A stretch of 64,000 bases of DNA from a virus (IMGVR_UViG_2799112248_000007:32205-96204), one strand, 5' to 3'. Positions 6,107 to 33,490 are shown, counted from the stretch's first letter. Numbers and translations are program-made. Notes: generated by a model not told the origin, from the sequence alone.

Positions 6107-6145
6107 CACTATTAGAAAGGCGTAACTATTCTGATAGTGTTTTTT
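6107..6145 (+). terminator. Intrinsic terminator
   Basis: CACTATTAGAA/TTCTGATAGTG stem followed by T6. Confidence 0.6.
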
Positions 6146-6153
6146 GTTGTAAT

Positions 6154-6226: not shown

Positions 6227-6266
6227 ATAAAATATGGAATTTACTAGAGCAAAGGAGAAATAAGAA

Positions 6267-6775: not shown

Positions 6776-6778
6776 TAG

Positions 6779-7963
6779 ATGAATACTAAACAACTTCCTA
6801 ATGAAATCGTTGAAGAATACAAGTATCGAATCTGTGAGAACAAAAAGCTTCTTGGTCTTACATGGGAAGGTATTAGTGACCTTCTTAACAAAGAGCTTAA
6901 ACTTAATTTCGGTGAATCATATTATCGCAAATGGTATAAAGCTTTCAAACAAGGTAGAGATTACGCTATTAAGCAGAGCGCTAATACCTCTGAAGAACTA
7001 GAAGAATTAAACGACAAAATTAAAGAGCTTGAGATTGCTAAAATGCAAGTTCAAGACCAAAAGCGTGAGTACAAACAATTTTTACGCCACGAGGCAAGAT
7101 TGGATAATTTGCTTAAAAAGCTGATTGACTCTATTAAAGATGAAATCAACTACGCTAGACCACTTAACTACAAGAAAGCAGATGTTAAATATAATGGTGA
7201 CACCTCTCTTACTTTAATCTTATCAGACCTTCACAAAGGAATGGTAACAGATAACCATTGGAACACCTTTAATGAAAAAGTGTTCTATGAACGCATTGAA
7301 CAAACAATTAATGAAATAATAGCTTATCAAGAGTTAACAGGAGCTAGAGAGCTTCATATCATGCAATTAGGTGATTTAATTGAGGGCAATCTACACCGCC
7401 TTACTAAGATTGGTGAAACAGAAACAGCAGTTGAGCAAACTAAGTCAGTAGCAGAAGCTTTGGCTAGACTTGTTGCTATTCTAGCAAACTACTTTGAAAA
7501 AGTTAAAGTTTACAGTGTCAAAGGTAATCATGACAGAATTTCTTCTCGCAAAGAGGAGGAAATTAAGACTGAAAGTTTTCATGATTTTGTCACATGGTAT
7601 ATGGGAGCTCGTTTAGAAAACTTGCCGAATGTTACTATGATGGACAACAAGTATGACAGCGAAATCATAGTAGCAACAATCTTAGGTAGAACTTACTTCG
7701 GTGTTCATGGTCACTTAGATAACTATAGCAAAGTGATTCAAGACCTAACAATGATGATTCAAAAGTTCCCTACTGCTGTTTTCGCAGGTCATATTCACAA
7801 GAATTTCGAGAATGAGATTCATGGCGTAGACCTAATAGTAAATGGTGGTTTTGCCGGAACGAACAACTATTCAAAAGACAGTCGCCTACTTTCTAAGGCA
7901 CATCAAAAACTACTATGGCTTGATAGAAATGGTCGTAAGGCTACATTCTATATCAAGTATTAA
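6779..7963 (+). CDS. Calcineurin-like metallophosphoesterase (YonJ-like)
   Basis: SDLH, LGDLIEG, GNHD, HGH and GHIH motifs after an N-terminal coiled coil. Confidence 0.88.
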   Translation: MNTKQLPNEIVEEYKYRICENKKLLGLTWEGISDLLNKELKLNFGESYYRKWYKAFKQGRDYAIKQSANTSEELEELNDKIKELEIAKMQVQDQKREYKQFLRHEARLDNLLKKLIDSIKDEINYARPLNYKKADVKYNGDTSLTLILSDLHKGMVTDNHWNTFNEKVFYERIEQTINEIIAYQELTGARELHIMQLGDLIEGNLHRLTKIGETETAVEQTKSVAEALARLVAILANYFEKVKVYSVKGNHDRISSRKEEEIKTESFHDFVTWYMGARLENLPNVTMMDNKYDSEIIVATILGRTYFGVHGHLDNYSKVIQDLTMMIQKFPTAVFAGHIHKNFENEIHGVDLIVNGGFAGTNNYSKDSRLLSKAHQKLLWLDRNGRKATFYIKY

Positions 7964-7968
7964 GGAGC

Positions 7969-8214
7969 ATGAGAACAATGGAAGAAACAAAATGTCAAGT
8001 ATGTACAACATATGAGGCTTTCGAAAATTTAATTGAAATCGGCACTGAACCTAAGCAAGCCTTTCATATTGTCGTATCACAGCTAATTGCAAGCACGTTA
8101 GAAACAGCTATTGAAGAAGCATATGACGAAGGTTATGAAGTAGGCTTCAAAGAAGCTTCTAATGATATAGCTGAAATCGTTGGTTCATATGCGAAAGCTG
8201 TAAAAGAAGCATAA
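7969..8214 (+). CDS. Hypothetical phage protein
   Basis: AAGGAG RBS; EAYDEGYEVGFKEA motif. Confidence 0.6.
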   Translation: MRTMEETKCQVCTTYEAFENLIEIGTEPKQAFHIVVSQLIASTLETAIEEAYDEGYEVGFKEASNDIAEIVGSYAKAVKEA

Positions 8215-8219
8215 ATTAC

Positions 8220-8416
8220 AAAAACTACTGTTAGATCTAAAAAACGACTAGAAATTAATCGTAATGATTTAATCGTTTTTCGATTAGCAACTACAAATTT
8301 AGTTTTAATCTCCCAGTCGCACTAGCGAAAAGTTTGAATGGGCTAAATTTAGCGTTGTTCAATACATTACTTTAGCTGAGCTAATTTCAATGAAATCAAC
8401 TCACCCCGCTTCTTAA
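8220..8416 (+). pseudogene. Remnant of a post-capsid (YonA-like) head-module gene
   Basis: Startless, frameshifted fragments KKRLEINRNDLIVFRLATTNLVLIS / SRTSEKFEWAKFSVVQYITLAELISMKSTHP, resembling from memory the protein encoded after the capsid gene in SPbeta-like phages. Confidence 0.45.
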
Positions 8417-8474
8417 GGACTCATATAGCGTTGCTTATGTAATAGAATTATTTAATATCAAAGGATAACACACA

Positions 8475-8783
8475 ATGATTGCAAAATTAGATTATTTAAA
8501 CTATATGCACTCATTAAAGGGCTCTATCTTTAAGATTTTGCCACTATATGAGGAAGGTGTTTCTACGCTACCTGACCACATAAATTCAGTTATTTTTGAG
8601 GTTCATAACGTAAAAGAAATCACATCTGAATATGATGGCGCATGGATTGTTCAAACTCATGCTATTCTTAATGGATTGCTTAAAGAGTGTATTAAAGCGG
8701 ACAATAAACCATTCATTAAAAGCAAAGTGTTTGGAACTATTGACACGATTGAAAAACAAATTAAAAAACTAGAACAGGAATAA
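8475..8783 (+). CDS. SPbeta-like conserved late protein (YomY-like)
   Basis: IFKILPLYEE motif; position between head and tail modules. Confidence 0.6.
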   Translation: MIAKLDYLNYMHSLKGSIFKILPLYEEGVSTLPDHINSVIFEVHNVKEITSEYDGAWIVQTHAILNGLLKECIKADNKPFIKSKVFGTIDTIEKQIKKLEQE

Positions 8784-8787
8784 TGTA

Positions 8788-9130
8788 ATGTTCAGCGCTT
8801 ATAGAAAAAGGGTTCGAGCTAATGATAACACAATTTATGACTTATAAAATTCCACAAAAAGACAAATGGTGAACTATATCTTAGATTCTCCTTCCCTATC
8901 TTATGTTTTTATTGATATGCAGGAAACATTACCAATCCCTAGTATCGTAAATGACATTAGACCTTTTTATGGGCGTAGATTTTCCTAATGGTTCAGTTAT
9001 TGTAAAACTACCTTAGAAAATCACATTCCTGAAATTAACTCAACTGTAACCATTTATGAGTATAAGTATCAAGTTGCTGTATTAACAGTATTGGTTACAT
9101 TGAAGTCCAGCTGCAAAGGATTCCAATAAC
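8788..9130 (+). pseudogene. Decayed head-tail joining (YomX-like) gene
   Basis: ATG MFSAYRKRVRA... with an in-frame TAA, continuing ...YILDSPSLSYV, then frameshifts and deletions. Confidence 0.5.
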
Positions 9131-9652
9131 ATGATTAAACAAAGTTCAACAGTAGAGTTCTTCTCAAACATATATCAAATTTTAATCACTGATGAAGAAC
9201 TAATGAGATTATTAAAATATGAGCCTAAAGGATATGACACTCAAGAAAACTACCATCCCGACCCACTTGACCCTGAGTTACCAAACTTAGTTAACATTGA
9301 AAGGGATGATTATTGGAAACTAGTTGATGAGAGAGTCGTTTTAGGCGAAAAAACCTCTGACCTAATAGAAAATAAACTATGCAAGATTTACATTTACGAA
9401 GGTAGACGTAGACCTGTAATTGAAAGCTATCTAGTAGCACAACAAGAGGTTAACATTGACATTTTTATTCATGAATCATTTGACAGAGATTTAAGAATAT
9501 CTCGAATATCTGACAGGATTAATGAGCTGATAGCGCTAGAGCGCATTGCAGGCTTTGGTAAGCTCGAATACAAAGCAGGCAACCCTCGTGAAGCCCCAAC
9601 ACATTATAGACGCTTCTTACATCAATACACAATGAATGTGAGTAAGAAATAA
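9131..9652 (+). CDS. Tail terminator/completion protein (YomW-like)
   Basis: DEELMRLLKY...VNIDIFIH...RISRISDRINELI...GFGKL pattern; synteny. Confidence 0.6.
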   Translation: MIKQSSTVEFFSNIYQILITDEELMRLLKYEPKGYDTQENYHPDPLDPELPNLVNIERDDYWKLVDERVVLGEKTSDLIENKLCKIYIYEGRRRPVIESYLVAQQEVNIDIFIHESFDRDLRISRISDRINELIALERIAGFGKLEYKAGNPREAPTHYRRFLHQYTMNVSKK

Positions 9653-10407
9653 TGCACCGCATTGAAAATTTAGACTACGATAAGAATTTATTTATTTTCG
9701 GTGAAACAGTAAATACAAAATTTGGTTCTATCAGATTTTTAACCTATCGAGAATATCTTAGTCATGCTGCTGAGATAAATCTTATCGCTCAAAACTCTCT
9801 ACACATCTACTACAACTATAGGAATCAACTTAAAGAAGCTATGGCAGATGAATCAAGCTTAAAAGCCTTAATGGAAATCAAGGAAGCAGACCTATTAGAG
9901 ATTGTTCTTAGTACACGACAGTTGTTAAATGCTTATTTGAAGATTTTTCAATTAGTGTTTGATGGAAATGAAGAAATACAATACGAAATAATCTTTGAAT
10001 CTAGTGAGAGTTTTCACTTTGTCAGAAGATTGATTATGGATATGAATGTAATCACAGAAGACAAGGTTTCTCCTAACGAAGAAATTCAAAGAGCTATTGA
10101 ACGCTCTAGAAGATTTAAACAACAATCCTCACAGGAGCAGACATTTGTTGATATTGTTACTTCTATTGTCGCAAGTACAAGTAACAGTTTTGATGATGTA
10201 TGTAGAATGAACATTTTTCAAGTTTACGCTATTTATGCTCGTGTTGGAGCTATCTATAACTATCAGACATCTACCCTATTTGCCACCGTTGCAGAGAAGG
10301 TAAACATTGAATCTTGGAATAAGCATATTGACTTATTCAAATTAGAAGATGATGTAATATCTAAGAATGAATTTGACAAAAAATTTGGTGGGCTACTTCA
10401 AATGTAG
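9652..10407 (+). CDS. Tail assembly protein (YomV-like)
   Basis: Translationally coupled; MNIFQVYAIYARV...YQTSTLFATV...W.KHIDLF pattern. Confidence 0.55.
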   Translation: MHRIENLDYDKNLFIFGETVNTKFGSIRFLTYREYLSHAAEINLIAQNSLHIYYNYRNQLKEAMADESSLKALMEIKEADLLEIVLSTRQLLNAYLKIFQLVFDGNEEIQYEIIFESSESFHFVRRLIMDMNVITEDKVSPNEEIQRAIERSRRFKQQSSQEQTFVDIVTSIVASTSNSFDDVCRMNIFQVYAIYARVGAIYNYQTSTLFATVAEKVNIESWNKHIDLFKLEDDVISKNEFDKKFGGLLQM

Positions 10408-10444
10408 CTCATACACAATATAAATAAATGGAGGAATTTACTCA

Positions 10445-11212
10445 ATGGGTAAAATCGTAATTCAAGACACAGCAGATGTAACAATCACTGACCTAGAAAC
10501 AGGTAAAGTGGTACTAAACGCGGAGGCGCAGTTAGCAGGTATCAAAGGCTCTATCTCAGAAGAAGACCTTAAAGGTGGTATCGGTAACAAAAAACTATAC
10601 AAAATTCGTACTGACAAAGCAATTGATTTAGCAATGCGTTCAGCAGTAGCAGATATTGAGTATTGGGCAATGACTCAAGGTGTAGCTGTAGAAGAAAACG
10701 GTAAAGGTCGATTCACAGCAAATACTAAAGGTATTGTTGTTGTAGACAGCGCCACTTCTGCAAACGAAATCGTATTACCTGATGGTGCTATCGTAGGAAC
10801 TAAAGCACAAGTTGAACTACCTGATGGTACGCAAGAGACTTTAAATGTTGTTGTTTCTTTAACAGACAAAACTAAGAAAGCTGTTGATTTAGCAGGAGCT
10901 ACAGGCACGTTCAAAGCAGGACAAGAGTTACATGTATTCTATCAAGAGGAAGTAGAAGGTCAAAGAATTTCTATTGATTCTACTAAGTTCGCAGGAAAAT
11001 ACAGAGTAGAAATGAAAACAATTGCTTATGACTTAGATACTGCAAAAGTAAAAGCAGATATTCTATTTGATTTCCCTGAAACAATCCCTAGTGGTGAGTT
11101 TGATATTTCATTAGAGAACGGTAATGTTTACACACCTGAAATCAATTTTGCAGTAATTAACCCTAAGGGTGCAGATGAAATGGGTTCAATCCTGCTTAAA
11201 CCACGTAAATAA
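10445..11212 (+). CDS. Major tail tube protein (YomU-like)
   Basis: Strong GGAGG RBS; LKGGIGNK and IDSTKFAGKYRVEMKTIAYD motifs; followed by a terminator and chaperones. Confidence 0.75.
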   Translation: MGKIVIQDTADVTITDLETGKVVLNAEAQLAGIKGSISEEDLKGGIGNKKLYKIRTDKAIDLAMRSAVADIEYWAMTQGVAVEENGKGRFTANTKGIVVVDSATSANEIVLPDGAIVGTKAQVELPDGTQETLNVVVSLTDKTKKAVDLAGATGTFKAGQELHVFYQEEVEGQRISIDSTKFAGKYRVEMKTIAYDLDTAKVKADILFDFPETIPSGEFDISLENGNVYTPEINFAVINPKGADEMGSILLKPRK

Positions 11213-11239
11213 GAAATATAATAATATGTCATAAAAACT

Positions 11240-11270
11240 AGGGTGAGAGGTCAACCTCTCCCCTTTTTAT
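11240..11270 (+). terminator. Intrinsic terminator after the tail tube gene
   Basis: AGGGTGAGAGG/CCTCTCCCCT stem followed by a T-tract. Confidence 0.7.
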
Positions 11271-11306
11271 TTCTAAACTATTAACCGATAAAAAGGAGAT
11301 TTTACC

Positions 11307-11789
11307 ATGACAGCAAAAAGACAGTCACCAATTAAATTAAAAGATATTCTAGCAGAATCTAAGAAAGTAGATGTAATGTCAACGTTCGTAGTTGACCCTG
11401 AGACTAAAAAAACAGTTAAATATAACGAATACTTTGACCGCACTCAAGTTGAGAAGCTAACTCTTGAGCTATTCAACGATATGCAGTATGCAATCGAAAA
11501 AGAATACAGTTTCTTTGAAAGTGAAGAACAACTAATTAAATATGAGCTATTGCTTATTATTAAATACTTCTCTCACTTTAAAAATGAAATCGGTGACACG
11601 TTCGAGGAAAAGATTATGGCAATGGAAGCATTAATGAAGATTGGTTTATTTGACCTATTCTTTGATGAAATTTTTGACCAAAATCAAGTTGGAGAAGTAA
11701 TCGAACGTGTAAACAAGGTTGCTGAAAAAGCTGTATTGGCTCAAGAAGCAATTAATGAAGCATTGGAAACAAAAGGAGATTTTAAATAG
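11307..11789 (+). CDS. Tail assembly chaperone (YomO-like)
   Basis: Acidic helical protein with LIIKYFS motif between tube and TMP. Confidence 0.55.
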   Translation: MTAKRQSPIKLKDILAESKKVDVMSTFVVDPETKKTVKYNEYFDRTQVEKLTLELFNDMQYAIEKEYSFFESEEQLIKYELLLIIKYFSHFKNEIGDTFEEKIMAMEALMKIGLFDLFFDEIFDQNQVGEVIERVNKVAEKAVLAQEAINEALETKGDFK

Positions 11790-11803
11790 TTAGGGTGATG
11801 TAA

Positions 11804-12262
11804 TTGCCTACATTCAGTAATATCAAGGATTTAGAAAAATATGTTCAAGGTAAAGTGAAGGACACCATTAAAAGCCCACAAGTTCTAAACGTGTTTAGAC
11901 ACGCAATGGTAGATTCTGTTTACACAGAAGTCTATGACTATTATGAGCCTAGATATGATGCTGGTGGTCTTTCAGACGCTAGAAATATGGTATTTACAAA
12001 ACATAAGCTTAATGGAAATACCTTCGCTTCTGACTTTGAAAACCTCACTAGTGATACAATGGATGGCTATTTTATTTCAGAGCTAATTGAAAATGGTAGT
12101 GATGTACAGCACACCTCTAGCAATTCTGAGAATGGTTGGTATAACCGTGATGAAAAATGGGCTGAACCTAGACCATTTGCAAAAGCAACAGCAGAAAAGC
12201 TAGATAAAACTACTTATAACAAACACCTTAAAAATGTTTTAGAGCAAGGTATCAACAATTGA
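11804..12262 (+). CDS. YomN-like / HK97 gp10-like tail protein
   Basis: FSNIKDLEKY...VYDYYEP...PRPF motifs; TTG start. Confidence 0.55.
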   Translation: MPTFSNIKDLEKYVQGKVKDTIKSPQVLNVFRHAMVDSVYTEVYDYYEPRYDAGGLSDARNMVFTKHKLNGNTFASDFENLTSDTMDGYFISELIENGSDVQHTSSNSENGWYNRDEKWAEPRPFAKATAEKLDKTTYNKHLKNVLEQGINN

Positions 12263-12275
12263 AGGAGGTGAGAAA

Positions 12276-13235
12276 ATGGCAATTAAAATACCTCCTGTAA
12301 CTACTGAAGAATGGCTTAAATGTAATGAGTGGAATAAAAAGATTGTTGATAAGTTCTTGAAACAACAACATCTATCAGATAAAACACTTAAACAATATAC
12401 AAGCGCATTAAAAATTTTTGTGAGATATGTTAAAGATGAATTTGACAACCGCCCTATCCACAAATTAAAAGCAAGACACGCTTTAGATTATCAGAATCAC
12501 TTGATGTCATTAGAGTTATCTTCAAATGCTGTTAAGTTCAAACGTTCAGCAGTAAGTTCACTTTGTAACTACATTGAACTTTACTATGGCGAAGACTACC
12601 CCGAATTTAGAAATATCTTCAACAAGGCTATTCCCTCCCCTCCTAAACAACTTGTGAGAGAAAAGAAGATTGTAGCGAAAGAAGATATTGACAGGCTTAT
12701 TGCAGAGCTTGAAAAAGAAGGTGAGTATCAAATGATTGCTTATTTCTTATTAAGCTACAGCACAGGCGCACGTAGAGCAGAAATAGCTCAGATGAAAAAA
12801 GAGTTCTTTTATATGCCTAAGGTAAAGAACAAAGACTTTTACGCAACACCTCAAGTTCGTGGTAAAGGTAAAGGTAAGGTTGGTAAACCGATCAAACTGA
12901 TGTATAGCGAAGAAGCTAGACAAGCTGTTTTAAAATGGCTTGAATTTCGTGGTGAAGATGATAACCCGTATGTTTTCGTTCGTAAGTTTAAGAATGGTGA
13001 AACAAAAGAACTTAGTCCCGACGCTTTCAATGCGTGGTTTACTAATAAGTTCAATAACATCTTAGGTTATAAACTTACACCTCACGCACTTAGACGCTCA
13101 AGAGCGACACACTTAGTAGTTGAAGAAGGAAAAGACATTAATAAAGCTAAGGTGCTTTTAAATCACATCTCTACTGAAACAACATCTATCTATGTTATAA
13201 AAGATGTTTCAGATGAACTAGATGATATTTTCTAA
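12276..13235 (+). CDS. Tyrosine recombinase (YomM-like) within the tail operon
   Basis: Catalytic set: TGARRAE (R), GKG (K), HALRR (HxxR), LLNH, TTSIY (Y); SAM-like N-terminus. Confidence 0.9.
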   Translation: MAIKIPPVTTEEWLKCNEWNKKIVDKFLKQQHLSDKTLKQYTSALKIFVRYVKDEFDNRPIHKLKARHALDYQNHLMSLELSSNAVKFKRSAVSSLCNYIELYYGEDYPEFRNIFNKAIPSPPKQLVREKKIVAKEDIDRLIAELEKEGEYQMIAYFLLSYSTGARRAEIAQMKKEFFYMPKVKNKDFYATPQVRGKGKGKVGKPIKLMYSEEARQAVLKWLEFRGEDDNPYVFVRKFKNGETKELSPDAFNAWFTNKFNNILGYKLTPHALRRSRATHLVVEEGKDINKAKVLLNHISTETTSIYVIKDVSDELDDIF

Positions 13236-13341
13236 TACTTTGAATTACATCCCTACCCTATTTCGGTTAGGGGTTTACTTGAGGGTTTTAGACTGCAACA
13301 AAATAGTTGCACAACGACGAATAAAGAAGGAGCTAAACATT

Positions 13342-16300
13342 TTGAGTATTACAAATAACGAAGTAAAGTTTTTGGTTTCGTTAGATATTGATAAAGATAA
13401 ATCCAAAAAAAGGATTGATACATTCTTATCTAAAGAAATGAAAGATAAAAAACTAACTTTTGGTGTAAATGTTGGTGCATCTAATAAAAACATCAAAACA
13501 TTTTTAGACAAGCATAAAAATAAAAACATTAACCTTAGTTTTGATGTTGCAGTTGGACAAAGTAAAGCAAACATTCAAACTTTCCTAAACAACCAAAAAC
13601 AAGCTAAGAAATCTTTGATTTTCTATGTAAATGAACAAGCAACACAAACTACAGTCAAAAGTGCTTTAAAGAAAATTGAGGTGCAACCACTACGGATTTC
13701 TTTTGGTGTGAATGATCAACAATCTAAAGCTAATATTAACAAATTTATAGAGACTGTTAAAGTAAACCAAAAACCAATTGAGCTTATTCTAGAAAAAAAG
13801 GCTAGTGTCCAAAACATTAATAAAAGCCTAGAACAAATTATTTTCGCTAAGGCAAAAGTAAAACTAGAACTTGCTAAAGGCGCATTTAATCATATTAAAG
13901 ACACTGTTGAAACGAAAGAACTACAAGGTCTTAAAACTGTTATGGAGCTTGATATTGAAAAAACGAAGCTACGCATTTCAGAACAGATTAATAAAATGTC
14001 TTTACCGAAGTTCAAAATTGATGTTGTCGCAAATGTTACACCTGTCGTTAGCTCAAAAGCAGTACAAGCTACTGTTAAAGAAGCCCCTTCTAATGTAAAA
14101 GAAATACCGTCACCTCCTACTGACTTTAATGGAACTATTGGAGCACTTAAAGAACTCCGCTCTATTCTTGTAGATATAAATACTAAAGTGACTGACTTGA
14201 AAAAAAATATGTCTGAGGATACCAGTTTGGGAAAACAACTCTCAGACGACGGAGCTAAAATTTTAGAGATTCGCGAAGCAATTACTTCAACAAAAGAAGC
14301 ATACGCAAATTTTAAAGGTGCAAACAACGAAGCAACAGAAGCATCGAACAAAGGATCTAAAGCTGCTAATTTATTATCTTTGGCTTTTGGTAGTCTTGGT
14401 GCTGCTGGTATGATAGCAGGCGCTGCTATTCAGTTTTTTACTGCTAGGTCTGAGGAAGCTAAAAAAGCTAAGGAAGAACTTATCGCTAAAAATGAGCAAG
14501 AGGTAAAGTCATTTGCAGACAATGAAAGAGCTATTGATAGCTTATTATCTAAATATAGTACACTTTCAGCAGAAAGCAAAGGACAACAACTAGATTCTCA
14601 AAAGTATAAAGAATTACTTGATACTCAAAATGAACTAGGTAAACTACTTCCTAACTTAGTTAAAGGCGAAGATGAATATGGTAATAAAATTCTAGTTTCT
14701 TCTATGCAAGCAGAAACTAAAGTTGACATTCTAAAACAAGAGCTTGAGGTTCAAAAACTACTTAATGCTGAAAAGGCAAAAGAAGAACAAGAAAAATCAG
14801 AGGACACAGCTAGAGACACTATTAGTGACGCTGAAAAAGATAAGAAAGATAGTCTTAAAAGCGCTTATAATTTTGTTTACCAAATTGAGAGCGTAAGTAA
14901 TAGATACGCAGAACTAAAAGGTAAGCTTACTAAAGGCATTAACATTGAGGGAGAAACACTCAGTTGGAGTGGAAAATCTCTTAAGAGTATCGAAGATGTT
15001 TCTTTAGCACTTGAAAAAATAGATGAAACCTTAAGCAAGAAAAAGGAATACAACTTAACTGAGGGTTCTATTCGTGACTTAGAAAACTCTAAAGAAGGAT
15101 TACAACAAATCTATCGTGAACTTCTACAAGCTCAAAAAGATGTTATGTCAGGTTTAAATGTATTAAAAACAGGATATACAAAAGACCTAGAAGATACCGT
15201 TAAATTGACGGGTGACTTCTCTAAAGAAGGTCAAGAAGTATTTGAAGATGTTGCTAACAGTGTTATCAACTTAGCTGAAACTGAGTCTGATTTAGATGAT
15301 TTCAACGAAGCTATTACTATGGCGTTAGGTAAAAAAGACGCTGATATTGAGAAAAACTTTACTGAATTAGCAGATACTATTTCTGAAATGAGAAAAAGTG
15401 GTATTACTGATGCTGAAGAACTTGAGAAAAAGTATGGTGATTCATTTGCTAAAATCAAGAAAAGTATTCTAGATGCTCTTGTTAAATCAGGTATAAAAGA
15501 AGGTACTGCTCTTTATGAATCATATGAAAAAACTCTTGATACATTCATAGAATCTAAACTTAACGAAGAAAAAGCAATTAAAGAAATCATGGAAACTCAA
15601 GGTAAAGGGCGCAAAGAAGCTGAGGAATATTTCAAAACTCATAACGAAGGCGCAGAAGGTCTTGCCGATGCTATAGACCCTATGGTGGCGTACGCACAGA
15701 AAATCAAAAGTTTCAGCTCTCTAGGAGAGGAAATGCTTGGTGTCACTGATAAGCTTATAACAGAAACGAATGACCTTATTGATGTCTATGAGTATCTCTC
15801 AAGTATTACTAACAAAACAACAGAAGAAACTAGTAAACTAGAAGAAGTCAAGGGTAAGCTTAACGCTCTATACCCCCACCTAGTTAAAAATGGTGAGATT
15901 CGTATTGAGAATATCAAAAAAGAAAACGAAGCAAACAAAATACTTCGAAAATCATTTGAAAACATGGCTGATGAAAAATACAAATCAGAAAACTCAGCGA
16001 CTTATAACTCTTCTCTCGGTACAAAAGCTCGTATTGAAAACCTACAAAAAGAATTACAAGCTTTAGATACTGTTATGGAAGAGTATAGAAAAGCAAACCT
16101 TGATACTGTTGAAAAAGTCGTGGACAAAGTAAATAGTGGCGAATTGTCTCCACAATTTGGTTTGCCAATGATTAATGAAATAAATGAGTACAATAGTAAA
16201 GTGGGCAAACTTGATGAATTAATGGGCGAACTTAATGATAGTGTAAATACCCTAAGTTCTGCTAATGCTGATTATGAAAAATCTAATGAAAAAGCAAGTA

Positions 16301-20373: not shown

Positions 20374-20973
20374 ATGAAACAATCAATACAATTTATGTAC
20401 GATGGTGTTTCTTCTGAGGATATGGGAGTTTTCATTGCTTGGAATGACGATGGTCTATTCGAAGAAAACTTCCTACCTAATAGGCAAATTATTGAGAAAA
20501 AAATAGCAAATCGTGAAAAACCTTACTTTCAGAGAGTGGAACATGAACCACTCTCTTTTAGTTTGTCTTTTGCTATTGCAGATTGGGAAAACAAAGACAC
20601 GTTAAGAAGATTAGCTCGTTGGTTCTTCCAACCATATTATAAACCATTGGTATTTGATTCTAACCCAAGCAGAGTATTTTATGCAATGTTCGAGGGTGAC
20701 AGTCAACTATTTCACAATGGGCTAAATGAGGGATATATCGAATTAAATATTAGATGTGATTCTCCATATGGCTATTCATTTGAACAAACAAAAGAAAATA
20801 TTGAACTTCGTGATATTAATGTTGGTACAAATGTTAAATTAGATGATTCAAATTTCTCTATGGGAGAAATGAGCAATATGCAAGTTACATCTAATGGTTT
20901 AACTATCGACACTACCCTATCAACATGGGGAAATGTCTATGCAACTACAAGTAATTGGGGAGGAATAACTTAA
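20374..20973 (+). CDS. Distal tail protein (Dit, YomH-like), N-terminal part
   Basis: FMYDGVSSEDMG...RWFFQPYYKPLVFD...GYIELNIRCDSPYGYS directly after the TMP. Confidence 0.75.
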   Translation: MKQSIQFMYDGVSSEDMGVFIAWNDDGLFEENFLPNRQIIEKKIANREKPYFQRVEHEPLSFSLSFAIADWENKDTLRRLARWFFQPYYKPLVFDSNPSRVFYAMFEGDSQLFHNGLNEGYIELNIRCDSPYGYSFEQTKENIELRDINVGTNVKLDDSNFSMGEMSNMQVTSNGLTIDTTLSTWGNVYATTSNWGGIT

Positions 20974-21632
20974 TGGAAAAAACTAATGGTGGACTAGGAT
21001 TAGATATTACTACTAATGCCACTTTTGATAATGATGATATAAAAGAAACAATTGTTGGTTATGGTAAAAACTTTTCAACTATCGAGAAATATTTAAGAGA
21101 ATCAACAAGCTCTCCTAATAACCTTGCTGTTGGTCAAACGGTTGAAAAAGGAAGGATTATTTGGAACGAAAATCCTGTAATCGGCAGTTATGTTGGTTGG
21201 GTAAATATTCGTGAAGGTAAACACGCCCCTAATTGGAAACCAAATGTTAAATATACTGTAGGACAAGAAATTAAAGCATTAACAGATAACGGAAATATTT
21301 ATCGTTGTGTTACAGCAGGAAAAAGTATGGTTAAATCCCCTACTTTCCTTGTTGAAGATGGTGTTGAATTTTATGATGCTATCGGCTATAAATGGTTTCC
21401 TGATTATAACTATAAAGTTAACGATGTAGTCTTCCCTACAAACGGCAGTAAATTATATTACTACATTTGTGAAACAGAAGGTCTTTCAGGAGAAAGTGAA
21501 CCTACATGGTCAGGTGTTTTAGCAGGAACTACATTTATTGATAACTCTGTCACATGGCGAAAAGAAGTAAATGTTAAATGGAAACAAGTAGGTAAATCCG
21601 CAGAATTTAGACCATTTGGTAAGGTTGAGTGA
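20973..21632 (+). CDS. Tail/baseplate protein with two CBM5/12-like W...Y.VG modules
   Basis: WKPNVKYTVGQ...IYRC and WFPDYNYKVNDVV...YYYIC...EPTW repeats; ATG overlaps the previous stop. Confidence 0.6.
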   Translation: MEKTNGGLGLDITTNATFDNDDIKETIVGYGKNFSTIEKYLRESTSSPNNLAVGQTVEKGRIIWNENPVIGSYVGWVNIREGKHAPNWKPNVKYTVGQEIKALTDNGNIYRCVTAGKSMVKSPTFLVEDGVEFYDAIGYKWFPDYNYKVNDVVFPTNGSKLYYYICETEGLSGESEPTWSGVLAGTTFIDNSVTWRKEVNVKWKQVGKSAEFRPFGKVE

Positions 21633-21636
21633 TACT

Positions 21637-22278
21637 ATGGCTAATTGGTCAAGATTGAGCGTTCCTAGAGGTATCTATATCTCCCCTCCTTTCTTTATTT
21701 CAAATGACTTAGATAAATATATTGCAAACATTAAAGAGACACTAATTAATATTCATAATCAAACAGTAGAATACTATTTTAGAGTTTCCTACAATCAAAA
21801 CGATTGGACTGATTGGAAAAGAATGTACATAACTTCCTATGACCTATTAGATGAATATATTTTAACAGGTTTGTATATTCAATTTCAGGTAGTCATGATT
21901 TCTGAGAATGAATCTGTTAAACCATACCTACAAGCTTTTGAAATGGAATTAAAACCATATGGCTTCTTGGAAAACACAGGTGACTTCCCTATCAAACCTA
22001 AGTTATGGATAAGAAAGAAAAACGGTAAAGGTGATATTGCAATTATCAACTTTACAACAGGTCAAAGAGTTGAGTTTAAAGACCTTAATAACAATGAAGA
22101 AATATACATTGATTGTGAGAATGAAGAAATTGTTTCAAGCAATCAAGTTAACGGTGTTTACAGGTATGATTCACACAACGATGAATACTTAGAATTAGCT
22201 CGTGGAAACAACTACATCACATCTGATGGTGACTTTGACCTCGATATTAGACACAAAGCAATACTACTACAAGAATAA
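21637..22278 (+). CDS. Protein carrying the Dit C-terminal domain
   Basis: ENTGDFPIKP...EEIYIDCENEEI...YLELARGNN is the typical siphophage Dit C-terminal signature. Confidence 0.65.
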   Translation: MANWSRLSVPRGIYISPPFFISNDLDKYIANIKETLINIHNQTVEYYFRVSYNQNDWTDWKRMYITSYDLLDEYILTGLYIQFQVVMISENESVKPYLQAFEMELKPYGFLENTGDFPIKPKLWIRKKNGKGDIAIINFTTGQRVEFKDLNNNEEIYIDCENEEIVSSNQVNGVYRYDSHNDEYLELARGNNYITSDGDFDLDIRHKAILLQE

Positions 22279-22294
22279 ACAGGAGGAATGACTA

Positions 22295-25200
22295 GTGAAG
22301 ATAGGTGAAATTGATTATAACCTAAAACTACCTAAGAAAAGTCTTTTTTTATGTAAACCAAATAAAAGCACTATCGCTAAAATTAATGAAGCCTATGATG
22401 TACAATACTATACAAAGTTAAGTACAGTAAATGAGCTTTCATTCAAGATTCCAACAATCATTATTAAAGATGAAGTTCCTATGGACAACCCAAATATCGA
22501 GCGTATTAAGCACAGATATATTTTTAAATATGTTGTTGGCAACACAACTGAGTATTTTCTTTTTAATGAATCTAACAAAACTTACGGTGATGAAGATTAT
22601 ATTGAATATAGAGCATATTCGCTAGGTGTTCAATTAGGTGACAAAAACGTTAGAGAATACGAGAAGATCGGTAACTTAAAAGATGTTGCAGATGGTGTTC
22701 TTGAAGATGTTTATGGTAGCTTAGGAGAAGTCCCTATTAAGCGTTGGACTATCGGTTATGTTGACAGCTACTTCACTACTTCCGAAACAGCAGAAAGAAA
22801 ATACAATGTAAGCTCTATGTCCCTATTAGAAGTTATGTATGACATTGCGACTAAATGGAACGCTGTAATCAAATGGAACACTGAGGATTTAGTAATCGAG
22901 TTCCACAAAGCTGAAAATGTAGGATTAAATAAAGGCTTTTACATTCGTGATGGTAAATACTTAGAAAGCTTCGATCTATCAGTCGATAGTAGCACAACAG
23001 TTACTCGCCTAAGAGCATTTGGTTCAGAAGGATTGACATTTAGAAAAATAAACCCACTTGGAGAAGACTATATACAGGACTTCTCTTTTTATATGTATCC
23101 ATTTGAATATGATAAAGAAAACAACAGGGTAATCAAAAGTTCAGACTACATGAGTGATAATTTATGTATTGCGCTAACAAAGTATGAAGACTTAGTGAAA
23201 AGCTTAGAAAGTGATTTTGAAACTATTTCTAAGAAAATCGAAGCTCTACAAGCAATCCTTACAATTGAATCTGATAGACTTTCTAAAATAACTGTAGAAA
23301 GAATGCTATTAGAAGATGAAAGAGATGTTCTTTTAGCTGATTTTCAAACTGATAAGAGTCTTTGGGGTAAAGATGGATATAACGACAGAGGCACTAAAGA
23401 TGGAACTGAAAGACATGCTGAGGTAATTGAATTACTTAGAGCAAAAGAGATTGAAGAATCTAACCAAAAAGCAGTCGTTGACAATGCTAGATTTGATGTA
23501 GAAGATGCAGAGCGTGAAAAGCAAGTCCACTTAGATAAACTTAAACCTTCTACTAACTTTACTAATGATGAATACGCAGAGTTACAAAACTTTATCATTG
23601 TCCAAGAGTATACAAATGACTCTATCACCCACCCCGAAGATTTGATGAAAGAAGCTAAAACAATCTTCAAACAAAGTCAAGAGCCAAAAATTCAATTAAC
23701 TGTAAGCATTATTGATTTCCTCTCAGTTATTGAATGTCAAAATGATTGGGATAAATTAGGTTTAGGTGACAGTATCAGAATACGATACGATAGGCTCAAA
23801 GTTAATATTCTAGCAAAAATCATTGAAATCAATTATGACTTTGAGAATTTTGAAATCTCTTTAACTATCGCTAACGAGAAAGACCTTAAAGATGGTAGTG
23901 CATTGTTAATGGACTTGCTAAACAAAGCAGATCTCACTTCTACTATCGTGTCGATGGACAAAGATGGTTGGAATCTATCGAAAGAAAACAACGGTAAAAT
24001 CAATGAAATTATCAACAATAAGTGGGACTCATTAAAAAATGCTGTCCTAGCAGGCTATGACCAACAAATAACTATCTCAGAGCGTGGTATCATCGTTAAA
24101 TCGCTTGACGATCCTGATAGTTGGTTGGTTATACAAAACGGCTTCTTGGCTATCACAAATGACCGTGGTAACACATGGAAACACGCAATTTCAAAAGACG
24201 GTATTTGGGGTGAATACATCTTCGGCAAACTTATCTCAGGTGTTAATTTATATATTGAAGATGAATCAGGAGCTTGGAAAACTCAAGGCTCTAGGACTAC
24301 TATCTACAATGCAGATGGTAAAGAAGTTATGTGGCTTGGTCTTGTTTCTGAAAACCTCCGAGATCAATTTGATAATATTATTCGCCAAGAAACAGGAGAA
24401 TGTTTCGGTTTAAAATCATGGAACACTGTAAATAAGGTTGAAATTACTGACTGTAAAGGTTTTGCTATCTCAAGATGGAAAGATAATGATTGGCAAAAAG
24501 TAATGTGGGCTAACCCTGACGGAACACTTTATACGAAAGATATGGTTGCGGAAGGAATTAAGATTGTTAATAATGTTGGCGACCTTATCCTAGACGCAGA
24601 GAACAATTTCTTTGATGTAAGTATTTTCGATAAAATTGTTGCTGACGGAAAACTAACAACTCTTGAAAAACTACAAATTACTACAGAATTGCACCGCATA
24701 CACGCCGACTACAAAGCCCTTCTCAAACACGCTGACAAATATAATAAGAGTGAAAGAGACAATGAAACAGACTTTGATGAAGCATGGAATCAAGATGAAG
24801 GTAGATTCCCTACTACAATATCTGATATTGAGCGATACAGCACAAAAGACCTCATTGAAAAATATACAGCTCTTGTAAACTACCTATCTCAATTCCTCCC
24901 TATTACAAAAAAAGGTATCATTAGAGATGAATTTCTTGAAATTGACCAAAAACACCCACTTATGGAAACAACGAGTGAGATTGCTAATAGAGGTTACTTT
25001 ATTCAAGTATTTAGAGACTATCATGATGCATCAATAAAGCTTAAGCAAGCTATAGAGGATTCGATTTTCTATTCAGGTATTAATATGGGAAGTTACTATA
25101 ACAACCTTATGATGGGTAAACAAGGTTTCGTAGCTGTCAGAAATGATGGTAGGTATCGTGCTTACCTTAATGCTACTAATGGTCTTGCCCTTCAAAAATG

Positions 25201-26302
25201 GGAAAAAGGCAAATGGGTTAGTAAACTATTTGCAACCTTAGGCGACCCTATGTGGGAAGATGGTACATTATTCGCAGAAGGTCTTGTAACTCACAATCTA
25301 CGAATTGTTGATGGTCACATGAACAATAAAATTATTTTTGATTGGCTTGACGGTATCACAATTTTCGGTGACAACAACGGTGCTGTTATTTACCTTAGCG
25401 GTAATGATGGTATTAAAATCGAAGTCGATGGAGATAGAAAGTTTTGGGTTGGTTTGGATGGTAGGCTTTATGCGAAAGACATTACTACTCACAATCTTAA
25501 AATTGTTGACGGTAACTTAGGTGAGAAAATTGTATTTGATCATGAAGAAGGTATTACAATCTATGGCGATAACGCTGACATTTTCTTAAATGCTAATGAC
25601 GCTATTAGAATTAAAACCAAGAGTGGCGAAGATAGATTTTGGGTTGATACTGATGGTTCACTATTTGCTAAAAAGTTATACATCATGGGTGATGACGATG
25701 AAATGATTGAAGATATTGATGGTTCATATATCTCTGATTTAACAGTAAATAGTTTAAAGACACTTGGCAAAGGAAGCACAAAACAAGACATTATCCATAT
25801 TGCTAAAAACTTTATGAGATTCAATACTTTCTTCTCAGATAGCGAAAAAACAAAACTAGAGTTTACCTTTGAAGGCACACGCGACACTTCATTCCCTGTT
25901 ATGATTTTCGGTTCAGGAAATGGTAGAGGATACGGTAGTGGCTCTGAGCAAGCAAAAGTTTACAAAGATAACAAAAAGTTTGCTATTGAATATGATGCAC
26001 CAAATGGAGTTATGACAAAATTCTATTTCAATGAAACAGATACAGATGATGCAGGACAAGCAGTTTACTTTGAGTCTAAAGGTGGCGTTCGATTCCACTC
26101 AGACAAAAAGTTCGTTGCAAAGACTGATTTGTATGAATTTTTCAGGGTTGTTAAAGGTGAAGACGCTAAAATGCAATTTGGTCAATACTCTTGGATTACT
26201 ATTGAAAAGGATAATCTAATGATTCGTTTTGATACTAATAACTACATCAAAATTTCTGCAAGTGGTGTGGAAATCAAAGGAACTAAGATTAGCTTAAACT
26301 AG
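22295..26302 (+). CDS. Tail-associated hub/spike protein (Tal, YomG-like) with C-terminal beta-repeat spike
   Basis: LFLCKPN N-terminus, TRLRAFGSEGLT...NPLG, coiled coil, AISKDGI motif, C-terminal GITI/FWV..DG.L repeats. Confidence 0.8.
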   Translation: MKIGEIDYNLKLPKKSLFLCKPNKSTIAKINEAYDVQYYTKLSTVNELSFKIPTIIIKDEVPMDNPNIERIKHRYIFKYVVGNTTEYFLFNESNKTYGDEDYIEYRAYSLGVQLGDKNVREYEKIGNLKDVADGVLEDVYGSLGEVPIKRWTIGYVDSYFTTSETAERKYNVSSMSLLEVMYDIATKWNAVIKWNTEDLVIEFHKAENVGLNKGFYIRDGKYLESFDLSVDSSTTVTRLRAFGSEGLTFRKINPLGEDYIQDFSFYMYPFEYDKENNRVIKSSDYMSDNLCIALTKYEDLVKSLESDFETISKKIEALQAILTIESDRLSKITVERMLLEDERDVLLADFQTDKSLWGKDGYNDRGTKDGTERHAEVIELLRAKEIEESNQKAVVDNARFDVEDAEREKQVHLDKLKPSTNFTNDEYAELQNFIIVQEYTNDSITHPEDLMKEAKTIFKQSQEPKIQLTVSIIDFLSVIECQNDWDKLGLGDSIRIRYDRLKVNILAKIIEINYDFENFEISLTIANEKDLKDGSALLMDLLNKADLTSTIVSMDKDGWNLSKENNGKINEIINNKWDSLKNAVLAGYDQQITISERGIIVKSLDDPDSWLVIQNGFLAITNDRGNTWKHAISKDGIWGEYIFGKLISGVNLYIEDESGAWKTQGSRTTIYNADGKEVMWLGLVSENLRDQFDNIIRQETGECFGLKSWNTVNKVEITDCKGFAISRWKDNDWQKVMWANPDGTLYTKDMVAEGIKIVNNVGDLILDAENNFFDVSIFDKIVADGKLTTLEKLQITTELHRIHADYKALLKHADKYNKSERDNETDFDEAWNQDEGRFPTTISDIERYSTKDLIEKYTALVNYLSQFLPITKKGIIRDEFLEIDQKHPLMETTSEIANRGYFIQVFRDYHDASIKLKQAIEDSIFYSGINMGSYYNNLMMGKQGFVAVRNDGRYRAYLNATNGLALQKWEKGKWVSKLFATLGDPMWEDGTLFAEGLVTHNLRIVDGHMNNKIIFDWLDGITIFGDNNGAVIYLSGNDGIKIEVDGDRKFWVGLDGRLYAKDITTHNLKIVDGNLGEKIVFDHEEGITIYGDNADIFLNANDAIRIKTKSGEDRFWVDTDGSLFAKKLYIMGDDDEMIEDIDGSYISDLTVNSLKTLGKGSTKQDIIHIAKNFMRFNTFFSDSEKTKLEFTFEGTRDTSFPVMIFGSGNGRGYGSGSEQAKVYKDNKKFAIEYDAPNGVMTKFYFNETDTDDAGQAVYFESKGGVRFHSDKKFVAKTDLYEFFRVVKGEDAKMQFGQYSWITIEKDNLMIRFDTNNYIKISASGVEIKGTKISLN

Positions 26303-26313
26303 GAGGATTTTAT

Positions 26314-26778
26314 ATGGCAAACATAGCTCTAAAAGACGCTACAATATCTGATTCTACTGCCACTGACCACATCACCTATAAGGTTAATGAGCAAGTAGAT
26401 ACAGGTGGTGGGTACTATGGCCAATGGGGTAATTATGTACCAACCTACCCTATCTACGATTGGGTTCAACATCAAACTTCTGCAACAGTCAAAGGAGAAA
26501 CAGTATCAACAGTAACAAACGTTACTATTCAAGGAAAAGCACCAATAGTTCAAGGTGACAAAACAAAAGAGAATGACTCATATAACATACCTAGTGGTGG
26601 CACATATGTTAGTGGTTCTCACACTAACGCTCAAGGCACAGTAACAGTTGGTAACAGTAGAAATGTTTTCATCAATGGTAAATCAGTTGCTATTGATGGC
26701 TCTACCGTTACAACACATGCAGGAACTAGCTCTAAAATTAACGGTGGAACTAGTTCTACTGTAACAATAGGTTCATAA
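26314..26778 (+). CDS. PAAR-like spike-tip protein
   Basis: VTIQGKAPIVQGD, GNSRNVFINGKSVAIDGS and terminal H...I..GSSTVTIG PAAR-type motifs directly after the spike gene. Confidence 0.65.
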   Translation: MANIALKDATISDSTATDHITYKVNEQVDTGGGYYGQWGNYVPTYPIYDWVQHQTSATVKGETVSTVTNVTIQGKAPIVQGDKTKENDSYNIPSGGTYVSGSHTNAQGTVTVGNSRNVFINGKSVAIDGSTVTTHAGTSSKINGGTSSTVTIGS

Positions 26779-26791
26779 AGAAGGTGAGAAT

Positions 26792-27949
26792 TTGGCAGTA
26801 ACAAAACAACCCATAAATTATTTAGAATTTAACAACCCTATTCATATTGTTTGGCGAAAAGGAACACCTAATGACCCTTTCATTGATAGACTAGACATTA
26901 CTCGTATAGTAAATCAACGTGTTGCTCTCTTAGAAATTCCTGATGAACTATATCGAGTAAGGATTGCGAATATGTTTGAAGTAAACTACGAAAAGTTCAT
27001 AAAAAGTAGTTTAGGTAAAAACGAGTTCTATTGTGACTATACAAATGGTTTCATCTACTTCAATGTTGACAGAGAAGCAGAAACAGTTTCTATTGTGTAT
27101 AAAGGCAGAGGTGTCATTCTATACCCTTCTAATCGAATTATTCACTATGATGGCACTAATAGCACAGAAACACTATACAAAATCATTGAAGAAGCAAAAT
27201 CTCAGATTCAAGAATTAATCGGTCAAACAGCAAACTTTGAAGAAGTTTTAGAGAATATGATTATCGCTACGAATTTAACAAAAGAAGCTACAGACATTGT
27301 TCTTGAAACAAATGATAAAGCACAGCAATATATTGATCTTGTCAAAGATGCTTACGAAACCACTGTATTAATCTATCAACCATATGTACAAACACAGAAT
27401 GAAATAGCGCAAAAGTACCCTAACCCACACGTTGGTTGGACTGTGCAAGTATATGACACAGGTATTCGTTACCGTTGGAATGGCAAAGAGTGGATTCCAA
27501 TAGATAATTTAGGTGGGAATATCCCTAAGGCATCTGATAAATATGATGGTCTTATGTCTAAAGAACATTACATTAAAGTGGAAGACATTAGTAATGAAAC
27601 AGACTATAGAACTATCGTTTTTATTTGCCCTCAAGAAATTTTACAAGGTGTCCAAGACCCTCATGTAGTCTTCCCTCATAATGGAGAAATTTTAGACATT
27701 AAAGCATTTGTCTCAAAAAAAGGTACTGTCGATACTTTAATAGATATTGAATTATCAAAAGATTTCAATAATTGGTATTCTATTATTGATAAACCTGTTT
27801 CAATTAATGCAGGTAATCACAAAGATAGCAGACTACACAAATTAAAAACAACAAAAATTAAAGAAAATGATGTTTTCAGGTTGAATGTATCTAATTTTAA
27901 TACAGACGCATATAACCTGACAGTAAATATTAAAATAAAAATTGATTAG
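26792..27949 (+). CDS. Baseplate/fibre-anchoring protein (YomF-like)
   Basis: FNNP...RKGTPNDP...LLEIPD N-terminus, coiled coil, YPNP.VGW...YRWNG.EW and DGLMSKE motifs. Confidence 0.6.
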   Translation: MAVTKQPINYLEFNNPIHIVWRKGTPNDPFIDRLDITRIVNQRVALLEIPDELYRVRIANMFEVNYEKFIKSSLGKNEFYCDYTNGFIYFNVDREAETVSIVYKGRGVILYPSNRIIHYDGTNSTETLYKIIEEAKSQIQELIGQTANFEEVLENMIIATNLTKEATDIVLETNDKAQQYIDLVKDAYETTVLIYQPYVQTQNEIAQKYPNPHVGWTVQVYDTGIRYRWNGKEWIPIDNLGGNIPKASDKYDGLMSKEHYIKVEDISNETDYRTIVFICPQEILQGVQDPHVVFPHNGEILDIKAFVSKKGTVDTLIDIELSKDFNNWYSIIDKPVSINAGNHKDSRLHKLKTTKIKENDVFRLNVSNFNTDAYNLTVNIKIKID

Positions 27950-27966
27950 AGAGTAGGAATTTAATT

Positions 27967-28725: not shown

Positions 28726-28766
28726 AAGTAACATAATAATATAATTAGGTAAAAGAGTGATTTTAC

Positions 28767-28800
28767 AGGGTAAGGGGATTTCTCCCCTACCCTATTTTTT
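28767..28800 (+). terminator. Terminator-like hairpin; copies at ~44616-44648 and ~53311-53344
   Basis: AGGGTAAGGGGA/TCCCCTACCCT stem followed by a T-tract. Confidence 0.65.
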
Positions 28801-28848
28801 ATGAATTTTTTAATAAAAAACTTCAATGCAATGAAGGAGATTGATAAT

Positions 28849-29448: not shown

Positions 29449-29469
29449 CACAAAGAGAGGAAATGCACT

Positions 29470-33489: not shown

Positions 33490-33490
33490 T

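Follow-up and report, generated by a model that had tools for sequence, protein, structure and literature searches.

The window analyzed here is a 64,000-nucleotide stretch of DNA (IMGVR_UViG_2799112248_000007, bases 32205-96204) that forms the right arm of a 96,204-base provirus record, referred to as G000. The element is a derivative, about 96 kb long, of an SPbeta/Sundance-type temperate siphovirus and belongs to a small clade of soil Lysinibacillus. Two adjacent deletions (~9.5 kb) took out its head module before the known copies diverged, its genes for a non-contractile tail have stayed intact, and the headless element is maintained by selection. Judging from its genes, the element's most likely product is free flexible tails resembling F-type tailocins, a reading to which we give about even odds, and its replisome may amplify the locus in the process. 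A first-pass annotation of this DNA had proposed domestication into an F-type tailocin. The parts of that proposal that stood are the selective and old loss of the head, the purifying selection on the tail, and the lack of a cognate head module in the element. The retained replisome and the failure to find a holin speak against it. On the sequence evidence, "candidate tailocin" is a fair name, and "domesticated tailocin" has not yet been earned.

Deletion of the head module

In the SPBc2 record (NC_001884), the genes run yonO-yonN-yonK-yonJ-yonI-yonH-yonG-yonF(terminase)-yonE(portal)-yonD-yonC-yonB-yonA-yomZ-Y-X-W-V-U...yomM...yomI(tape measure)-yomH, which agrees with the annotation's placement of the SPbeta head genes between yonJ and the yom tail genes. 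Phages Perkons and Sundance follow the same plan. In the element, the order and families of YonK, YonJ, YomW, YomV, YomU, YomM, YomI, and YomH were recovered, and the YonG-YonF-YonE-YonD-YonC-YonB module and the YonO polymerase were not. The interval from YonJ to YomW holds only four items: an open reading frame (ORF) of 81 amino acids, 260 bp, an ORF of 102 amino acids, and 347 bp without an ORF. This layout confirmed the reported gap of ~260 bp (8215-8474) in place of the head block. The last gene before the lost module is a YonJ-like exonuclease (6779-7963; phrog_284, E 4e-64; tblastn with SPBc2 YonJ, E 3e-26). All genes given below from position 6521 onward are on the plus strand.

The closest head-bearing relative found was L064, a 28-kb metagenome contig. 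Its proteins are 78% (YomW), 71% (YomV), 61% (tube), 68% and 53% (the next two genes), and 86% (YomM) identical to those of the window. From left to right, L064 carries the end of YonJ, a 94-amino acid ORF, a YonG-like gene, terminase, portal, gp021-like and gp022-like genes, capsid, a gp024-like gene of 198 amino acids, a gp025-like gene, a homologue of the 102-amino acid ORF, an intact 218-amino acid gene at the YomX/gp027 position, and a YomW-like gene. The distance from the end of the 94-amino acid ORF to the start of the 102-amino acid homologue is ~9.5 kb in L064 vs. 260 bp in the window. The left edge of the deletion is thus the 81-amino acid ORF (7969-8214), which is homologous to the 94-amino acid ORF of L064 (39% identity, E 1e-20) and intact in both related genomes described below. 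The right edge is the 102-amino acid ORF (8475-8783; phrog_5523, E 2e-14), at the position of Sundance gp026. The two deletions removed the YonG-like gene, terminase, portal, two further head-module genes, capsid, and two post-capsid genes, leaving ~175 bp of one of them.

Those base pairs were found in the gap. A frameshifted internal fragment of the first post-capsid gene, which is Sundance gp024-like, lies at 8230-8407. Its two parts correspond, in different frames, to residues 46-74 (8230-8316) and 75-104 (8318-8407) of the 198-amino acid L064 gene (E 3e-16), and 175 bp match L064 at 71% at the DNA level. The annotation had described such a remnant, and the comparison with L064 supported it. 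Queries from SPBc2, Sundance, and Perkons had revealed no remnant in the 260-bp gap; they were too distant, and only L064 uncovered one.

The gene at the connector position (SPbeta YomX/Sundance gp027) is a pseudogene (8788-9130), as had been claimed for the head-tail joining gene. It retains residues 1-66 and then 159-218 of the 218-amino acid L064 gene, in three frames, with residues ~67-158 lost. Two further copies of the element were available, in the draft assemblies of Lysinibacillus sp. KCTC 33748 (G002) and L. zambalensis M3 (G003). A viral record, G001, has the coordinates of the G002 contig and was not counted as a separate copy. The pseudogene copies in G002 and G003 retain 245-275 bp more and carry different frameshifts. 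In G003 the gene is almost whole, with a frameshift near residue 47, whereas G002 carries four fragments of it, broken near residues 72, 157, and 170. No break position is common to all three copies, suggesting separate decay after the gene had become useless. We infer that this gene encoded a head-completion protein, from its position and from a weak Pfam hit of Sundance gp027 to Phage_HCP (E 0.052, below the cut-off). The profile of the YomX family, phrog_24208, had no match in the element. The remnant region at 8230-8407 likewise differs among G000, G002, and G003 by four single-base insertions or deletions (indels), and the 102-amino acid ORF has no indel among the three genomes. The model of its protein (AlphaFold, predicted local distance difference test [pLDDT] 91.8) is a four-helix bundle. 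There was no PDB sequence match for it, and Foldseek and VIA-align gave generic helical bundles only.

No head gene was found in the rest of the element. tblastn with head proteins of Perkons, SPBc2, Sundance, and a complete prophage on contig C107 of G003 gave no hit in the 96 kb. Profile searches of G000 for the portal (phrog_2739), capsid (phrog_12438), YonF-type terminase (phrog_15503), and generic terminase (phrog_2) gave 0 matches each. The first three profiles recovered their targets in Perkons, G003:C107, or a Bacillus subtilis control. The capsid profile missed the capsid gene of G003:C107, which makes the capsid search weak when taken alone, so more weight should be placed on the portal and terminase results. 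On the element's contigs in G002 and G003, neither a portal nor a terminase was matched. The whole G002 draft contained no SPbeta-type portal or YonF-type terminase, and its five generic terminase matches were on other contigs. In G003, an SPbeta-type portal and terminase were present only on C107, a complete SPbeta-like prophage that has no DNA similarity to the element and matches it in three ORFs at 27-34% protein identity. The locus therefore holds no capsid, portal, or terminase, only remnants. A megablast of 6000-14000 against phage records gave no match.

The same junction was found in G000, G002, and G003 at 93-97% DNA identity, as well as in an isolate contig and metagenome contigs, which is more than chance would produce. 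Across the whole of 6000-14000, the isolate contig (X2; 70,194 bases) shows 85 differences and a single gap. Over 7795-9068, a metagenome contig of 1,274 bases matches at 99.8% identity. A rhizosphere contig (X5) extends over 7878-9068, the junction is tiled by sediment contigs (X6), and X8 has the G002-type state with the extra 245 bases; these three are informative only for the parts of the stretch that they cover. Among 21 sequencing runs listed, 20 hold part of 7700-9700 and seven, one possibly the source, hold at least half of its words. One run recorded as RNA and one guessed to be RNA hold 5% and 9% of the words. The element is rare, being present in two of 49 species representatives of the genus, and the 102-amino acid family has matches in five of 370 genomes of the family; neither scan turned up a nearer carrier among the species representatives. 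Further relatives at 63-92% identity exist, for example at L. xylanilyticus locus tags ACIQ1D_19410-19420.

These data bear on the explanation that the phage is complete, with its head genes elsewhere in the host genome, or that the deletion is an assembly error. Only the 96-kb record of the G000 host genome was read, and the G002 and G003 assemblies break within the repeated fibre genes, both of which would allow for it. We nevertheless regard it as very improbable, given the same junction in three independent assemblies and further contigs, the remnants of deleted genes at that junction, the host genes at both ends of the element, and the G002 whole-genome profile searches without an SPbeta-type portal or terminase.

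Constraint on the tail genes and the chromosomal site

The region from 9131 to 27949, in which every tail-core gene had been called intact, contains 13 tightly packed ORFs, and all have full-length counterparts in G002 and G003. They open with a tail terminator of the YomW family (9131-9652, 173 amino acids; phrog_9587). Its AlphaFold model (pLDDT 86.4) matched 23 PDB chains in Foldseek at E<=1e-3, including T5 p142 and lambda gpU; the monocin cap came after these at E 3e-3. It is followed by a YomV-family protein (9652-10407; phrog_4051; SPBc2 YomV, E 2e-33) that is 99% identical in G002 and G003, and by the tail tube protein of the YomU family (10445-11212, 255 amino acids), which matches PDB 8k98_A over residues 3-250 (E 3e-43). 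Two genes of 160 and 152 amino acids (11307-12262), both intact in G002 and G003, lie between the tube and tape measure genes, a position that points to tail chaperones; the second matches phrog_19892 and phrog_16506. Within the tail module, as in SPbeta, is a YomM-like tyrosine recombinase (12276-13235; Pfam Phage_integrase, E 2e-18; SPBc2 YomM, E 9e-41). The tape measure gene (13222-20373; phrog_4211, E 8e-91) encodes 2383 amino acids in G000, 2384 in G002, and 2386 in G003. The distal tail protein (Dit, YomH-like) and two baseplate genes (20374-22278; phrog_33) are 50-57% identical to Perkons ORF190-188, and the tail-tip/hub protein has 1335 amino acids (22295-26302; phrog_6211 minor tail protein, E 3e-208). 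The set ends with a PAAR-like gene of 154 amino acids (26314-26778) and a conserved tail gene of 385 amino acids that reaches 27949 (phrog_281, E 1e-11; phrog_11315, E 4e-107). With the receptor-binding/fibre genes that follow, the set of a non-contractile tail is complete as far as the sequence shows: terminator, tube, tape measure, distal tail, hub, and fibres. The sheath family PF04984 had 0 matches, in line with the reported lack of a sheath gene. PDB sequence searches with YomW, YomV, Dit, and the hub gave nothing useful, and an Atlas search returned the family names YomW and YomV only.

Two features of this tail were observed besides. The tape measure has metallopeptidase (phrog_7767 metallo-endopeptidase, residues 1134-1256) and lysozyme-like domains, as does SPbeta YomI. 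The PAAR-like gene stands directly after the hub of a siphovirus-type tail.

Selection was measured as the ratio of nonsynonymous to synonymous differences (pN/pS) between G000 and G002 and between G000 and G003, using ORFs covered to at least 90%, with binomial P values against neutrality. The ratio was 0.15 for the six proximal tail genes at 9131-13235 (P ~1e-17), 0.38-0.41 for the tape measure gene (P ~1e-57 to 1e-64), and 0.17-0.24 for eight distal tail genes at 20374-29448 (P ~1e-196 to 1e-224). It was 0.13-0.20 for two genes of the lysis region (P ~1e-18 to 1e-24) and 0.15-0.17 for 24 genes of the left arm (P ~1e-143 to 1e-176). The tail genes are thus under purifying selection (pN/pS ~0.15-0.4), and the selection check that the annotation had called for contradicts neutral decay of them.

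Indels gave a similar picture. G000, G002, and G003 align collinearly over G000 1-48112 (93-97% identity), and 23% of this stretch is non-coding. The three-way alignment of these 48 kb contains 254 indel events: the non-coding part (11,019 bp) has 218 and the coding part (37,093 bp) has 36 (~20 per kb vs. ~1 per kb). Three doubtful ORFs of 64-70 amino acids account for 25 of the 36 coding indels; the remaining 11 comprise six whose length is a multiple of three and five at <=~40 bases from an ORF end. The 6.8 kb from 9131 to 15908 have five indel events vs. ~134 at the non-coding rate. Divergence is 8.8-9.7% in non-coding vs. 3.9-4.2% in coding DNA. These contrasts indicate that the copies diverged long after the head was lost, under strong selection on tail and replication genes alike. 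The selective loss of the head with the tail kept is therefore supported, and the junction shared by three diverged copies makes the loss old. A recently crippled prophage in neutral decay is hardly credible on these data. The non-coding share of the collinear stretch and accessory genes that look eroded would suit it, but the deletion is older than the 4-10% divergence among the copies, the indel density of non-coding DNA is ~20 times that of coding DNA, and the pN/pS values are those of constrained genes.

The constraint also bears on the explanation that this is a grounded prophage, kept for genes that benefit the host (thymidylate synthase, ribonucleotide reductase, immunity/exclusion), whose tail genes yield no useful particle. 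In its favor are thyA, the nrd genes, a MazG-like hydrolase, and the full replisome at the low left-arm pN/pS, the failure to find a holin, and the evident recombination of the distal tail genes with incoming phages. The proximal tail genes, however, are not imported, as their low synonymous divergence (pS) shows; their pN/pS is 0.15 and they have no frameshift, and the DNA 1 bp upstream of the terminator gene decays freely. A benefit to the host from metabolic genes does not explain such constraint directly beside freely decaying DNA, and we consider this explanation rather unlikely.

The distal tail genes are less telling, and this counts against the tailocin reading. In the middle of the tape measure gene, pS rises from the 0.07-0.12 seen elsewhere to 0.38-0.52, and it stays there through the baseplate genes (13222-29448), where DNA identity is ~80%. 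This marks a recombination boundary within the tape measure gene, although the length of that gene is kept. The distal genes were probably exchanged through recombination with other phages, and their being intact therefore tells less. The proximal tail genes share the low pS of their neighbors and therefore provide a clean test of selection.

The element is fixed between the host HAD-hydrolase gene and yfkB. Its left flank in G002 (contig C53) and G003 (contig C20) consists of MFS transporters, LysR, ribosomal protein L25, opine dehydrogenase, and the HAD hydrolase; the first gene of G000 is thymidylate synthase. On the right, a terminal fibre gene copy at the end of G002 contig C1 is followed by yfkB, a luciferase-like gene, TauE, and the gerA operon. 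The locus is thus a chromosomal one common to related strains and species, with genes under purifying selection. Of the 48 genus genomes with both genes, most have HAD and yfkB <=~1.5 kb apart, which represents the empty site. The distance is 132 kb in G025 and 155 kb in G004, two other species, and a complete SPbeta/Perkons-type prophage lies in between (G025:C31 402635-536340; G004:C1 3243321-3400678), with the usual order of YonO-like polymerase, terminase, portal, and capsid genes. SPbeta-like phages therefore occupy the HAD/yfkB site, and the host genes at both flanks leave no head genes hidden at either end of the element. Between G002 and G003, pS is 0.145 in host flank genes (12 genes) and 0.093 in the left arm of the element (22 genes), which fits the presence of the element before or near the split of the carrier lineages.

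Several observations were made at this site. Carriers have a distinct yfkB allele beside such elements, with 81-84% identity to one another vs. 57-60% to the usual host gene, and G025 retains a partial second yfkB beside HAD; the gene may have been brought along by the phage. In the G004 prophage, the portal match (3346931-3348442) contains a TAA and the tape measure (3367051-3369468) is present only as an 805-amino acid ORF and fragments, so this copy may be decaying by another route.

Replication, release, and the possible product

The left arm encodes thymidylate synthase, a sigma-like protein, a MazG-like hydrolase, both ribonucleotide reductase subunits, and a peptidase, followed by a 1353-amino acid DNA polymerase, RecJ, primase, Sak4, RuvC, an initiator-like protein, a tyrosine recombinase, and a helicase. 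All of these genes are intact in the three genomes. The element has therefore not been streamlined; replication and recombination genes were kept, including two tyrosine recombinases. The reported absence of a large phage RNA polymerase was extended to all 96 kb, where tblastn with the Perkons and G003:C107 polymerases found no YonO-type enzyme. Its use as a sign of reduction was not upheld, since Sundance (read from 8 to 40 kb) carries a sigma factor and a RecD-type helicase at the place of SPbeta YonO, and sigma-like genes also occur in the element.

A promoter-like motif, AAAGTAATATAAT[AT]ATAT, occurs seven times in the window vs. 0.87 expected and is oriented with transcription in both arms. 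Its sites include 4237, 4818, 11215, 28730, and 43022 on the plus strand, and 11 sites lie on the minus strand of the left arm. They stand before the genes at 11307, 28801, and 43391, among others. The last of these is an amidase endolysin (43391-44149; phrog_3088, E 2e-82) that is conserved in G002 and G003.

From these genes a course of events can be proposed. After the head was lost, the element would have been unable to make virions alone. The connector-position gene decayed differently in each lineage, and the non-contractile tail genes, amidase, and replisome stayed intact under purifying selection. Upon induction, sigma-like factors would drive both arms, the element's DNA might be amplified in place, and free flexible tails of ~350 nm would be built and act on neighboring cells in the manner of F-type tailocins. 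The predicted length follows from the rule that a tail measures ~0.15 nm per tape-measure residue. Release would take place through the amidase and a membrane lesion supplied from elsewhere, a requirement that arises because no holin was found. A bolder version is a replicating tailocin, in which copying in place raises gene dosage and ~350-nm tails carry adhesins from three fibre sets, kept since before the carrier species split; from the gene content, we put this forward tentatively and as more doubtful than the production of tails as such.

A number of findings weigh against a tailocin. The replisome and deoxynucleotide (dNTP) genes of the left arm (24 genes) are as constrained as the tail, and characterized tailocin loci do not need them. 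There is no holin beside the amidase and no membrane-protein ORF nearby. A hydrophobicity scan of ORFs of 40-200 amino acids gave no candidate outside larger genes, and PF09682, the one holin Pfam family tried, had no match. In Perkons, three membrane-protein genes lie between the homologue of 42556-43023 and the lysin; none was found by tblastn in any of the three copies. LexA-type (Cheo) boxes occur at chance level (two found vs. 1.05 expected), and the promoter-like sites are conserved no more strongly among the three genomes than the rest of the non-coding DNA. Finally, the complete SPbeta-like prophage on another contig of G003 may provide help in trans there.

The small ORF before the endolysin (43212-43373) had been considered as a holin of the LL-H type, which the PF09682 result did not bear out. 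It has 72 amino acids in G003 and is shortened or frameshifted in G002 (68) and G000 (53), and it has no hydrophobic segment.

Help in trans leads to another explanation, in which the element mirrors the capsid-forming satellites: it would supply its own replication, tails, and fibres and take heads from a co-resident SPbeta-like helper. Selection at the level of the element would account for the conservation of both replisome and tail, G003 carries the complete prophage just mentioned, SPbeta-like phages are found at the same yfkB site in G004 and G025, and the 102-amino acid gene from the head side of the junction is conserved. Nevertheless, the G002 draft has no SPbeta-type portal or YonF-type terminase anywhere, and the candidate helper in G003 is only 27-34% identical over the three tail proteins that match. 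No small terminase, recognized integration module, or end repeat was seen in the element. All copies are at one chromosomal locus, and the host flanks have diverged about as much as the element (pS 0.145 vs. 0.093). We therefore judge helper dependence to be improbable.

The element can be compared with several known systems. A prophage origin is assumed for tailocins. Among defective phages of Bacillus, those of the PBSX type have a contractile tail and still make small heads. The element resembles PBSX, a prophage-derived killer particle, in having genes for a putative particle at a fixed chromosomal site in a spore-forming member of the Bacillota; it differs in having no sheath match and no head genes. 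With SPbeta (SPBc2), Brevibacillus phage Sundance, and Psychrobacillus phage Perkons, it shares the YonN-YonK-YonJ...YomW-YomV-YomU...YomM-tape measure-YomH order, a recombinase gene inside the tail module, and a tape measure with wall hydrolase domains. With Sundance it also shares the replacement of the YonO polymerase by a RecD helicase and a sigma factor. Unlike the element, all three are complete phages (134-137 kb) that retain YonG, terminase, portal, and capsid in the interval from YonJ to the tail genes.

The monocin locus comprises 18 genes and includes a holin-lysin cassette and a regulatory region; it is related to TP901-1-like phages, and its published description lists no head genes (PMC11830787). 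Like the monocin, the element has a Gram-positive host and a chromosomal non-contractile tail set with a terminator of tube-like fold, tube, chaperones, tape measure, distal, hub, and receptor-binding genes. In contrast to the monocin, it is ~96 kb long and SPbeta-like, with a replisome, three fibre sets, a 2383-amino acid tape measure, and no holin found. Efagins of Enterococcus (bioRxiv 10.64898/2025.12.13.693970) and F-type pyocins are likewise chromosomally fixed headless non-contractile tail loci kept across strains. They are streamlined and have holin-lysin cassettes, whereas the element is not streamlined; the likeness considered here is one of organization. In their discussion, the efagin authors note a paucity of intermediates between prophage and tail particle (bioRxiv 10.64898/2025.12.13.693970). 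The portions of the literature that our search reached report no tailocin from Lysinibacillus and none derived from SPbeta.

If the tailocin reading is true, the element may be such an intermediate between a prophage and a tail-shaped bacteriocin. Its head loss can be read base by base, from a head-bearing relative, the scars of the deletion, a decaying useless gene, and a constrained tail gene one base further on. The equal conservation of the replisome suggests either that in-place amplification contributes to particle making or that the element still leads an independent existence. Practical interest would also attach to a Gram-positive tail particle of such great length, with a tape measure that degrades cell walls and a large set of exchangeable adhesins.

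Other features of the window

G+C content is ~33% throughout, and each end of the G000 record coincides exactly with a stop codon. The long ORFs are nearly all on the plus strand from window position 3293 to 64000 and on the minus strand in the 32 kb further left. A Sundance-like RecD-type helicase gene is located at 614-3058. The rightward structural arm is opened by a sigma-factor-like gene on the plus strand (3293-3805; phrog_5767, E 4e-17), which also matches the C-terminal part of Sundance gp013 by tblastn (E 2e-6). A YonN-like HU gene (4326-4709) and a YonK-like gene (6521-6775; Pfam PF09642, E 1e-14) come next, and a tRNA-Arg (TCT) gene (5165-5241) lies in the non-coding stretch between them.

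Two observations concern genes at or near the deletion. In L064, at 1518-4390, the terminase is split into parts of 90 and 510 amino acids by an ORF of 239 amino acids, which may be an intron or a homing element. The 81-amino acid ORF of the window (7973-8214) is 96% identical in DNA, exactly over its own length, to G002:C30 21943-22184. This contig is an unrelated 25-kb siphovirus-type prophage contig with its own terminase, portal, capsid, and 1557-amino acid tape measure. The idea that the ORF is a foreign insert was dropped, since its L064 homologue stands at the same place and marks the gene as native. Its low identity to this homologue of its own lineage suggests that the allele was exchanged between two resident prophages.

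To the right of the tail core, fibre/adhesin genes occupy 27967-64000 in three tandem sets. The first set (27967-42441) contains phrog_17517 tail protein and relatives, and the two further sets, partly truncated, extend from 44183 to the right end of the element at 64000. The second set opens with truncated or split copies of 135 vs. 215 amino acids and of 215 + 130 vs. 357 amino acids.

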